From a virus: DNA of 64,000 nucleotides. The DNA is taken from the IMG/VR virus record IMGVR_UViG_3300014202_001521, positions 66,931 through 130,930 of that record. One strand, given 5' to 3'. Positions within the stretch are counted from its first letter, which is position 1. Each line of letters begins with the position of its first letter. The translations under genes were made by a program, and so were the position numbers. This document shows positions 10,972 to 40,192 of the stretch, in pieces. Below the pieces are notes generated by a model. That model searched no databases. It saw only the letters and a program-made list of their open reading frames with translations, and was not told where the DNA came from.

Positions 10972-11625
10972 TTGATGGAATTTCTTCTACAACATTACAA
11001 GATAATCAAGGAAGACAAAGAATTGGTCTATTTTGATGGCGGCATAGCTGTTCAAAAGGACCGTACTCAAAGTATTGAGTATGATAAAGACTACTTCGAA
11101 AAGTACACCAGCTATGAAGGTACGCCAATAGCTATTGTATTGAACGAAAGCCGCGTGTCAATCACGCAAAAATATTGTAAAAAAGCTTTACTTGATATCG
11201 GGATAGGTTCTGGAGAATTTATAAAGTCTTCAAGCCGTAAGGTTTATGGATTCGATATTAACCCTTTGGGGGTTGAATGGCTAAAATCCCGTGATTTGTA
11301 TGTCAATCCCTACGAAAGTGTTCCAGAAGATTTAGGCGGCTGGACGTTTTGGGATAGTCTTGAGCATTTTGCGGAACCGCAGGACATTCTGACACAGATT
11401 CCAGCAAATCACTATGTATTTATATCAATTCCCGTGTTTCATGATGTATTATTGGTCAAAGAGTGGAAACATTATAGACCTAATGAGCATTATTACTATT
11501 TCAGTTTTCGCGGAGTAGTCAACTACATGAAACACTCTGGTTTCAAGTTAATAGACCATAACGATGAAGAAATTGTAGCGGGACGCCAGGATATACTTAC
11601 TTTTGTGTTTCAGCGTCAACCATAA
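10972..11625 (+). CDS. Class I SAM-dependent methyltransferase
   Basis: LLDIGIGSG, YGFDINP, WDSLEHF. Confidence 0.75.
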   Translation: MMEFLLQHYKIIKEDKELVYFDGGIAVQKDRTQSIEYDKDYFEKYTSYEGTPIAIVLNESRVSITQKYCKKALLDIGIGSGEFIKSSSRKVYGFDINPLGVEWLKSRDLYVNPYESVPEDLGGWTFWDSLEHFAEPQDILTQIPANHYVFISIPVFHDVLLVKEWKHYRPNEHYYYFSFRGVVNYMKHSGFKLIDHNDEEIVAGRQDILTFVFQRQP

Positions 11626-11817
11626 AGAACTTCAACTGAATATCGCCCAATTCAGTTGCAATTTCCTTCTTGGTGGCATTGGTCATGCCCTTGCGGTAGC
11701 AAATCCATACTGCCCATTTGCCATGTTCGTTCATTTCAACTTTGGAACTCTCGAAGAATGGCTGTCTTTTTAAGAACTCGCTGTAATTTCTTTCCAATCT
11801 TTTTAACTTATCAAACA

Positions 11818-12183
11818 TTATTGAACCTTGTCTTCTTTACCCCTTACTTGGACATAAAACACAAAAGAGTTTGGTAAAGGCTGTCCTGTCTTTTTATCAG
11901 TTTGTTGATGATAACGCAAGAATAATTTAGTATTTCCTTGGTCATAATTCAAGATATCTTTCAATCTTGATGCACATGCATTGATAAACTGGTGGCTTCC
12001 CGTAACTCTTAATCCATCATACATATACGTCGAGCCACGGTACTCATCTGGAACAATATTCAGTGGCTGAATTGGGATAGATGAGGGAAGTGTCTTCCAA
12101 AATTGCACTATCTCCTTCTTTTTAGCCTTCCAGGGCTTTTGGGTAAATTCTGCTTGTTCGCACCAATTCTTGAAACTGAACAT
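11818..12183 (-). CDS. Hypothetical protein with capsid-targeting-like N-terminus
   Basis: Likely start MFSFKNWCEQ at 12183, preceded by CATAAATACAAT. Confidence 0.6.
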   Translation of the reverse strand: MFSFKNWCEQAEFTQKPWKAKKKEIVQFWKTLPSSIPIQPLNIVPDEYRGSTYMYDGLRVTGSHQFINACASRLKDILNYDQGNTKLFLRYHQQTDKKTGQPLPNSFVFYVQVRGKEDKVQ

Positions 12184-12539
12184 ATTGTATTTATGCCTAG
12201 TTAGCACTTTTATATAAAATTACCCAAAATGGATCGGAAGGTTGATTTATTTTGTCGTGTAGGACATAGAAATTCAGCCTGTGGAACTTTCTAGGTGCCT
12301 TTAAAACAGCTTCAATCCCAAAGTTGGAATAACGCAGGTGATGTGCTATTCCAACTTTGGGACCAAATTCTGAGGGACAAGCTGGCTGTTTTCTCTCAGG
12401 GAAAATAACTGGTAAAACGTTAGGCATTTTATTAAACCATGCCTTGGTTTCTGACGAACTTTTTACCAGAACTAACTCCTGCTCTAAAATAGCCTCGCCT
12501 CGGTTTAGCCAATAATTCATCATCGTACAGTATGTACGA

Positions 12540-13336
12540 TTATTGGTTGATTAATAGTTCAAATTGTCCCTTTTTCAATATTGCGTCTACATTGGACACC
12601 TTTTTGTTAAATCGGTGATCTGTAACCCTATGTTCTAAAAGGTTATAAGTTCTAATCTTATTGCCGCGATTACCGTCCATGAGTTCCTTCCTCATTTGGG
12701 AGTAAACTGACTGCTCCTTATTCTGGAGATAGTCATTCACTTTCGCGGTAATAATCCTAGTGGCTTCACGTTTGTTGCTATGCTGGTCACGTCCATTAAT
12801 GAATACTTGTATCCCTGTGGGGATATGACGCATACGAACAGCGCTAGCTGTCTTATTTTGGTGCTGTCCACCTGGACCGTGACCGCATTGTGTGGTAACA
12901 TCCAATTCGTTCTGAGGAATTGGTTTCTGAGTGTTATCAGGTGGCAACGGTAAGATAGCAACAGCCACTACGGATGTTTGCTTTCTTCCCCGCGTCTCTG
13001 TAGGAGGTATACGTTGAATAATATGCTTGCCAGTTTCGTGCTTAAAGAAGCGTCCTGCCCCTCTACCACTCACTTTGGCAACCACATGGCCATTTTCAGA
13101 ATCCAAAATCTCTACAGCCAGAGCATGAGCCACAGCATATTTCACATATGCAGCGAATAAGTCGTGGACAAAGAGCTTGGAGTCTGTGCCACCTTCACCG
13201 AATTGTATTTCTAAAATTATTTCCGAACTTTTGTCAAAGACAGTCTAGGAGCGGAGATTGGGCGGGAGTGGTAGCGGAGCTAAAGAGACACCATTTTCTG
13301 GCCATTTTCTTGCGATTTCCAATTTTTCTTCTTCAT
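12540..13336 (-). CDS. Class I peptide chain release factor (RF1-like, lacking domain 1) encoded through two +1 frameshifts
   Basis: GPGGQ, QRIPPTE (PxT), IRTYN. Conserved ILEIQFGEGG...F..DLF..Y lies upstream of the track's GTG start. SD AAGGAG with ATG at 13336, slippery CTT-TAG-C at 13285-13279 and CTT-TGA-C at 13239-13233. Confidence 0.85.
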
Positions 13337-13366
13337 GATACTTTCTCCTTTGGTAATATATAGAAC

Positions 13367-40107: not shown

Positions 40108-40111
40108 ATAG

Positions 40112-40192
40112 TGTGGTAGGTGGGACTTGAACCCACACCCCTTTCGGGACACGCCCCTCAAGCGTGCGCGGCTGCCATTACGCCACTACCAC
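40112..40192 (-). tRNA. tRNA-Leu(GAG), long V arm
   Basis: GTGGTAG/CTACCAC, CACGC-TT-GAG-GG-GCGTG, A73. Confidence 0.92.

Follow-up and report, generated by a model that had tools for sequence, protein, structure and literature searches.

A phage gene for an RF1-type release factor with two predicted prfB-like +1 frameshift sites in tandem

A release factor gene from a large phage seems to require two programmed +1 frameshifts in series. The gene lies on the minus strand of the window, by which we mean the whole stretch of 64,000 nucleotides (nt) that we analyzed from the IMG/VR record IMGVR_UViG_3300014202_001521. The record is a fragment of 103,371 bp, which CheckV rates as 21% complete, implying a phage of roughly 500 kb. 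We estimate a probability of about 0.85 that the mRNA of this gene carries two tandem programmed frameshift sites like that of bacterial prfB, and that both are needed to form a release factor of 264 amino acids. An initial annotation, made from the sequence alone, had proposed an RF1-like protein of about 264 amino acids that depends on two tandem prfB-type shifts, and the comparative evidence strongly backs this proposal.

We checked the coordinates and reading frames on the minus strand of the window, where all parts of the gene lie. A Shine-Dalgarno (SD) sequence, AAGGAG (13345-13350), stands 8 nt before the ATG at 13336, which opens a leader of 18 codons in frame 0 (13283-13336; MKKKNWKSQENGQKMVSL) with a lysine-rich start. 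The leader ends at the first shift site (13279-13285), where CTT (13285-13283) is followed by TAG (13282-13280) and C (13279). An SD-like GGTG (13289-13292) lies 3 nt before this CTT, which is the spacing of the stimulator in prfB. A +1 shift here would lead into a middle frame, with a segment of 15 codons (13237-13281; SSATTPAQSPLLDCL) that would be translated solely after the first shift. This segment ends at the second shift site (13233-13239): CTT (13239-13237), TGA (13236-13234), and C (13233), which is exactly the prfB heptamer. In the window, the second CTT lacks an SD-like element in front of it. The second +1 frame, which we call the RF frame, encodes an RF1-like core of 231 codons (12540-13235, including the TAA at 12542-12540) that starts with DKSSEIILEIQFGEGG. 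The core includes the RF1-type PxT motif of stop codon recognition, PPT (12999-13007; identified by alignment), and the catalytic GGQ motif (12864-12872), which is invariant in the alignment of the core. At both sites, then, a P-site CUU lies directly before a stop codon and the +1 frame is open and encodes conserved protein; the doubly shifted path is predicted to yield 264 amino acids in total. The RF frame has its own TAG (13245-13247) within the spacer, 3 codons before the core, which bars direct entry into this frame upstream of the second site, and there is no start codon between this TAG and the core. The initial annotation had placed the ATG, both sites, the frames, and the TAG in the RF frame correctly to the base, and it was also right about the SD, the PPT and GGQ motifs, the GGTG at 3 nt from the first site, and the lack of an SD at the second.

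The gene callers start this gene at GTG 13145 (13143-13145). We agree with the initial annotation that this start is wrong: the GTG has no SD, and it would delete 30 conserved codons. In pairwise comparisons with six relatives (described below), core codons 1-30, upstream of the GTG, had a proportion of synonymous differences (pS) of 0.54-0.89 vs. 0.01-0.20 for nonsynonymous differences (pN), or a dN/dS, where calculable, of about 0.01-0.13. The same DNA in the other two frames gave no such pattern. By this measure, the 30 codons are shown to be under strong purifying selection and to be translated in the RF frame. Since this stretch is translated and the RF frame is closed upstream and lacks a start, the sole entry would be a +1 shift at CTT TGA C.

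To assess the conservation of both sites, we compared the window's gene to six diverged relatives (93-73% amino acid identity): LR756511, which is an uncultured phage of 595 kb (84% amino acid identity in the core), four loci from Logan, and one JGI contig. These seven genes form a clade (support 100/96) that is sister to genes with one site. All of the relatives keep the SD and ATG, the short leader, GG(T/A)G-N3-CTT-stop-C, and the open middle frame. At the first site, CTT-stop-C is invariant in 7 of 7 members, with TAG as the stop in five, TAA in one, and TGA in one. At the second site, the block (G/A)AC (T/C)G(T/C) CTT TGA C AAA is invariant in all seven. Synonymous sites between these genes are near saturation, so the conserved blocks must be held at the nucleotide level. 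The initial annotation had called for an alignment of homologs to see if both slippery sites and a 45-nt spacer are conserved. Both sites are kept, but the length of the spacer is not: the distance from CTT to CTT is 46, 43, or 37 nt, and it changes only in multiples of 3. The substitutions also point to the middle frame as the one that is read between the sites. Spacer substitutions at 13249 and 13270 in near-identical strains are synonymous in the middle frame only, and a change from TGT to TGC beside the second site in one clade member (L036; L numbers are our labels for loci) is synonymous in the middle frame and changes V to A in the RF frame. In sum, sequence comparison has shown the frames, the conservation of both sites, the reading of the spacer in the middle frame, and the translation of the core upstream of the GTG.

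Could a single shift be enough? The middle frame of the window contains an ATG (13303-13305), and our forward simulation, which reads from an ATG to the first stop, shifts by +1, and discards any path that does not finish at the true RF stop, does find a path from there with one shift. The protein would start with MARKWCLFSSATT, the shift would occur at CTT TGA C, and the upstream ORF (open reading frame) would be separate. We consider this very unlikely. ATG 13305 has no SD, and the first site and the SD-like element at 3 nt from it are invariant across the clade. Furthermore, in five of the seven members (L038, L031/32, L001, L035, and L036), the middle frame does not contain any ATG, GTG, or TTG, which leaves a shift out of the leader frame as the only way in. 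We therefore dismissed ATG 13305 as a general start and rejected it as the main start of this gene.

The two sites recur in a wider family. We searched 5.8 billion proteins and found 501 matches at E ≤ 1e-20, which were mostly of 190-250 amino acids and truncated or with odd starts. For about 57 distinct members, we obtained DNA from IMG/VR, JGI/ENA metagenomes, and Logan, mostly from viral contigs of 34-572 kb; a scan of genomes gave at least four loci from the short family, all of them on contigs of metagenome-assembled genomes. In a phylogenetic tree, the short family forms one clade (99/93), apart from full-length RF1 loci. Loci with up to about 43% identity to the window's core have more than 100 open codons upstream, and these are ordinary full-length RF1; the short member with the lowest identity is L142 (43%). 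We classified the genes by forward simulation and hand curation. Sixteen have two tandem sites at the leader, 28 have one site at the end of the leader, 5 have one site within the core with TAT CTT TA(A/G) at core codon 31, and 1 has an in-core CGT CTT TGA C at codon 50. Of the rest, three are uninterrupted, and in four an in-frame stop takes the place of the shift. Upstream of the core, the RF frame is devoid of ATG codons in all of the shift-type genes.

The shift signal itself is highly constrained. CTT occupies the P site at 62 of the 66 sites examined, which come from 50 genes, with GTT at 3 and ATT at 1, and CTT is also used in GC-rich members. The stop is TGA at 38 sites, TAG at 22, and TAA at 6. 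The Phe codon that the motif creates in the RF frame is always TTT, GC-rich members included, which distinguishes a nucleotide signal from an amino acid motif. An in-frame CTT TTA is tolerated at core codon 199, which shows that CUU-U alone does not suffice and that the stop codon belongs to the signal.

The tandem arrangement is far more common than expected by chance. We looked for a second CTT-stop within 120 nt upstream in the 44 genes with a site at the end of the leader. Its distance from the main site is 1 mod 3 in 17 cases, 0 mod 3 in 1 case, and 2 mod 3 in 1 case, and one +1 shift can follow another only in the 1 mod 3 register. The sites of the 16 tandem genes are 34-70 nt apart, always at 1 mod 3. 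The middle frame is open across the spacer in all 16, the RF frame has a stop there in all 16, and the leader frame has a stop there in 6. The stop in the RF frame may serve to keep ribosomes from entering this frame too early, or it may be due to chance. All 16 have an SD and ATG before the leader, which ranges from 8 to 27 codons in the relatives, and all 16 have an SD-like element exactly 3 nt before the first CTT. At the second site, such an element is present in 6 of the 16 genes and in none of the 7 from the window's clade. The nine tandem genes from outside this clade are L041, L042, L043, L044, L124, L126, L133, L134, and L144. Given that the design recurs in 16 of about 57 related genes, these comparisons argue for a genuine recoding device rather than an error of sequencing.

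We also considered a translational bypass, since the layout resembles that of T4 gene 60. Ribosomes would take off from the first CUU, just before a stop, and land on the second CUU, a matching codon 46 nt on, leaving the spacer residues SSATTPAQSPLLDC untranslated. However, UGA comes right after the landing CUU, and ribosomes would still have to shift by +1. Also, a bypass demands neither the 1 mod 3 distances nor the open middle frame that we observed in all 16 tandem genes. Finally, we found no take-off hairpin, and the leader in the window folds worse than shuffled sequence (z = +1.75). We regard bypass as highly improbable.

How did two sites in series arise? Across the family, the tandem state changed at least five times on well-supported branches. 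Several pairs of cassettes are near-repeats, such as GGGGG-TGT-CTT-TAG-C and GGGGG-TGC-CTT-TAG-C, which lie 34 nt apart in L144, and this suggests an origin by duplication. The tandem layout probably formed by duplication of a shift cassette of length 3n+1; such a duplication would be frame-neutral because the copy brings its own +1 site.

The least probable explanation, to which we give almost no credence, is that the interrupted frame is an artifact or reflects nonstandard decoding. There are three versions of this idea: assembly indels, a pseudogene expressed from the GTG, or TAG being read as an amino acid from ATG 13376. Indeed, no stop interrupts the RF frame between ATG 13376 and the TAG at 13247, and gene callers do choose the GTG. 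But the breaks are common to more than 20 independent assemblies. Among public sequencing runs, we found none with this exact phage (the best share of words was 0.17), so the check for indels that the initial annotation had asked for was made on contigs that cover the region from four runs with relatives of 90-99% similarity, one of which is a metatranscriptome. These contigs had up to 35 substitutions and no indels, and both 7-nt sites were unchanged. A pseudogene would not be expected to have dN/dS far below 1 upstream of the GTG. As for recoding, the coding coverage is 0.888 under the standard code (code 11) and hardly rises with TAG as sense (0.890) or TGA as sense (0.889), and none of the 18 tRNAs of the record is a suppressor; the phage therefore uses the standard code. 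Besides, ATG 13376 has no SD, and in L001/LR756511 other stops close the RF frame upstream of the TAG.

The encoded protein appears to be a phage-borne class-I release factor of the RF1 type that consists of domains 2-4, without domain 1. The core matches Pfam PCRF (positions 99-194 of 194) and RF-1. The best NCBIfam model is RF1 (model positions 103-336 of 347, 214 bits), and the equivalog cutoff of 400 is not reached; RF2 scores 156 bits. The best match in PDB is to residues 110-341 of the 360 of E. coli RF1 (E = 7e-43), followed by RF2 (E = 4e-28). These matches begin at RF1 model position 103, or E. coli residue 110, which is why we assign domains 2-4 only; the RF frame is open for just 3 codons upstream of the core, and the N-terminal domain 1 of RF1 is absent. 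In the alignment, the recognition loop is of the RF1 type, with PPT and the flanking Q and T conserved, and the loop QR(V/I/C)-PxT-E..GR.(Q/H)TS is common to most of the short family. As predicted from sequence, the PPT loop is compatible with the UAG of the first site but not with the UGA of the second.

Under the tandem-shift reading, ribosomes would start at ATG 13336. At codon 18, the peptidyl-tRNA-Leu would occupy CUU, the A site would contain UAG-C, and the SD-like GGUG would lie 3 nt upstream. One outcome would be termination by a release factor; in the other, the tRNA would re-pair on UUU and reading would resume at AGC. Fourteen codons past the first slip, the ribosome would meet the same choice at CUU UGA C, and only ribosomes that slip twice would yield the 264-amino acid factor. 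The output would then be the product of two shift efficiencies, each dropping as termination activity at its stop rises. By analogy to prfB, we infer that slipping competes with termination. If so, the first site (UAG) would answer to RF1 of the host and probably also to the phage factor, and the second (UGA) to host RF2.

The initial annotation interpreted this as a sensor for the joint depletion of RF1 and RF2: the first site would sense RF1 only, the second would sense RF2 only, the pairing would be selected, and the factor would be made only when both host factors are depleted. This fits the gene in the window: UAG is read by RF1 only and UGA by RF2 only (PMC12421855), and the window and five other genes carry TAG and then TGA. 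We nevertheless find this gate improbable even for the window's gene, and it is not a conserved design. Within the clade, L001 has TAA as its first stop and L034 has TGA. Across the 16 tandem genes, the stop pairs are TAG/TGA (six genes), TAA/TGA (two), TGA/TGA (four), TAG/TAG (three: L043, L044, and L144), and TAA/TAG (one), so that 7 of 16 have the same stop twice. And five of the six TAG/TGA cases come from one clade, so this pairing may have been inherited rather than selected. By these comparisons, the conserved property seems to be two shifts in series, not the pairing of RF1 with RF2.

Does the phage factor regulate its own synthesis? As a test for autoregulation, we looked for covariation between the recognition tripeptide and the stop at the shift site. 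There was none: PxT occurs with TGA and TAG alike. Since the loop is of the RF1 type whatever the stop at the site, only the UAG or UAA sites could be autoregulatory. The phage factor could feed back on these sites, but not on UGA sites.

Several points weigh against two obligatory shifts. First, the second site lacks both an SD-like stimulator (0 of 7 in the clade) and a conserved RNA structure. RNAalifold gave −4.4 kcal/mol and no covarying pair, and neither site is accompanied by a conserved structure. Without a stimulator, the efficiency of the second site may be low, and the combined yield could be a few per cent. Second, the spacer peptide is poorly conserved, and the window's own middle-frame ATG (13305) would need just one shift. 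Third, both sites have long been kept, but this is no proof that a tandem layout brings an advantage: a gene in which it has become fixed would be killed by the loss of either site. What the retention across the clade indicates is that expression requires both sites, not that having two is better than having one.

The obvious comparison is to bacterial prfB, where the site is SD-N3-CUU UGA C. The phage's second site has the same heptamer, its first site has an SD-like element at the same 3-nt spacing, and in both systems a short leader ORF with its own SD and ATG precedes a class-I release factor gene. In contrast to prfB, the phage gene is of the RF1 type, lacks domain 1, and has two sites in series. 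A survey of more than 12,000 genomes in 2025 found TGA in 98.6% of 8,164 prfB motifs, no TAG, and no programmed shift in prfA (PMC12421855). The stops of the phage family, on the other hand, include UAG (22 of 66 sites) and UAA, and its sites lie at three or more positions. Also unlike in prfB, the phage factor's own RF1-type specificity cannot close a feedback loop at UGA sites.

There is an experimental precedent for +1 shifting at CUU UAG C or CUU UAA C. In the eRF1-like gene of Mimivirus (R726) and Megavirus (mg280), readthrough of UGA is followed by a +1 shift at one of these heptamers, as shown in E. coli with mass spectrometry (PMC3521657). This is also a viral release factor gene with two recoding events, and its heptamers are those of the first site in the window and in LR756511. 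However, the Mimivirus protein is of the eukaryotic/archaeal type (eRF1-like), comes from a virus of amoebae, and has no homology to the phage protein, and its gene combines readthrough with one frameshift rather than two frameshifts.

PrfH (RFH) is a release factor paralog that lacks domain 1 and is coupled to RtcB. The phage factor differs from PrfH: its core scores 78 bits against the PrfH model (TIGR03072), whose cutoff is 166.65, it matches the PrfH structure (7sa4) with E = 4.5e-13, and it keeps the PxT loop of RF1. None of the six ORFs that flank the phage gene had an informative match to a Pfam or PHROG family, and thus no RtcB was recognized among them.

Phage-encoded RF1 or RF2 genes have been reported from large phages, including Lak, crAss-like, Agate, Jade, and huge phages, where they are tied to stop codon recoding and frameshifting is not mentioned (bioRxiv 10.1101/2021.08.26.457843; PMC7162821). 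Unlike those phages, the phage studied here uses the standard code. A review of release factor evolution mentions neither phages nor frameshifts (PMC6514570), and in the literature we found no paper that describes frameshifting in phage release factor genes.

Programmed +1 frameshifting at CUU-stop has hitherto been treated as a hallmark of bacterial prfB. In a family of RF1-type factors from huge phages, this device seems to work with UGA, UAG, and UAA alike; it occurs at several places along the gene and is often present as two copies in series. The tandem release factor frameshift is of high interest for the recoding field: within about 110 nt, it provides a compact natural test bed in which to study the combined effect of two recoding events and the tuning of a +1 slip by stop identity and an SD-like element. 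It also raises the question of why large phages bring a termination factor without domain 1 whose synthesis is tied to the state of termination in the host. A more speculative reading, which we hold to be less likely than not, is that tandem CUU-stop sites act as an element of translational logic or gain, giving a squared, switch-like response if the stops are the same or a two-input gate if they differ, and arising repeatedly by duplication of 3n+1 cassettes. Huge phages would then make their own RF3-independent, RF1-type factor only when host termination collapses, and in the window's gene the first site would also close an autoregulatory loop. In practical terms, automatic annotation mis-calls the start of most sampled members of the family or truncates them, which matters for a family with more than 500 matches in the protein search.

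The other architectures in the family show where else the device can be placed. Five genes (L070, L061, L064, L063, and L071) start at the core and have TAT CTT TA(A/G) at the AY-L|NY position, near core codon 31; the UAU in the E site is the same as in E. coli prfB. In L106, CGT CTT TGA C lies within the core near codon 50. Together with the sites at the end of the leader, these put the device at three or more positions in one protein family. In L123, L058, and L059/L062 (in the leader) and in L142 (at core codon 38), there is an in-frame stop in the RF frame instead of a shift; the stop is TGA in three cases and TAG in L142. L059 ends its own gene on TGA, so recoding of TGA is unlikely there and readthrough is a candidate. 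These relatives resemble the readthrough step of the Mimivirus gene. More generally, the codon before CTT is TGT at 32 of the 66 sites and is mostly NGT. Sites that lack an SD-like element often read (A/C)CTGT CTT T, which could be a second type of stimulatory context.

Around the window's gene, a TATATA motif (13357-13362, minus strand) lies upstream of the SD, and an identical or near-identical block is aligned in those members of the clade whose aligned stretch reaches that far. A scan for sigma-70 promoters gave nothing on the gene's strand. The block may be a phage-specific promoter element. Directly after the release factor gene, on the minus strand at 11597-12523, are three small ORFs (108, 129, and 73 amino acids), which are syntenic in relatives L031, L033, L034, and L036. 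They have no Pfam or PHROG match and could be functional partners of the factor.

The initial annotation had counted two phage tRNA-Leu(GAG) genes that could decode the P-site CUU. ARAGORN finds just one (40111-40192, minus strand), and it is the only tRNA with a GAG anticodon in the 103-kb record. It could read the P-site CUU, which makes it a candidate for a role in shifting. We also considered whether a phage tRNA might decode CUUU as a quadruplet, but no four-base anticodon was reported and the in-frame CTT TTA is tolerated in the core, so we rejected this idea. In L070 and L061, a tRNA-like sequence (with the T-arm GGTTCGAATCC or GGTTCGATTCC) lies about 20-100 nt upstream of the start of the release factor gene, so the factor adjoins tRNA genes there. 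All 18 tRNA genes of the record (7742-42756 of the window, minus strand) are for Leu, Ser, or Tyr, which are the class II types. Four of the Leu tRNA genes (36534, 39749, 40690, and 42144) lack the long variable arm and are just 76 nt long.

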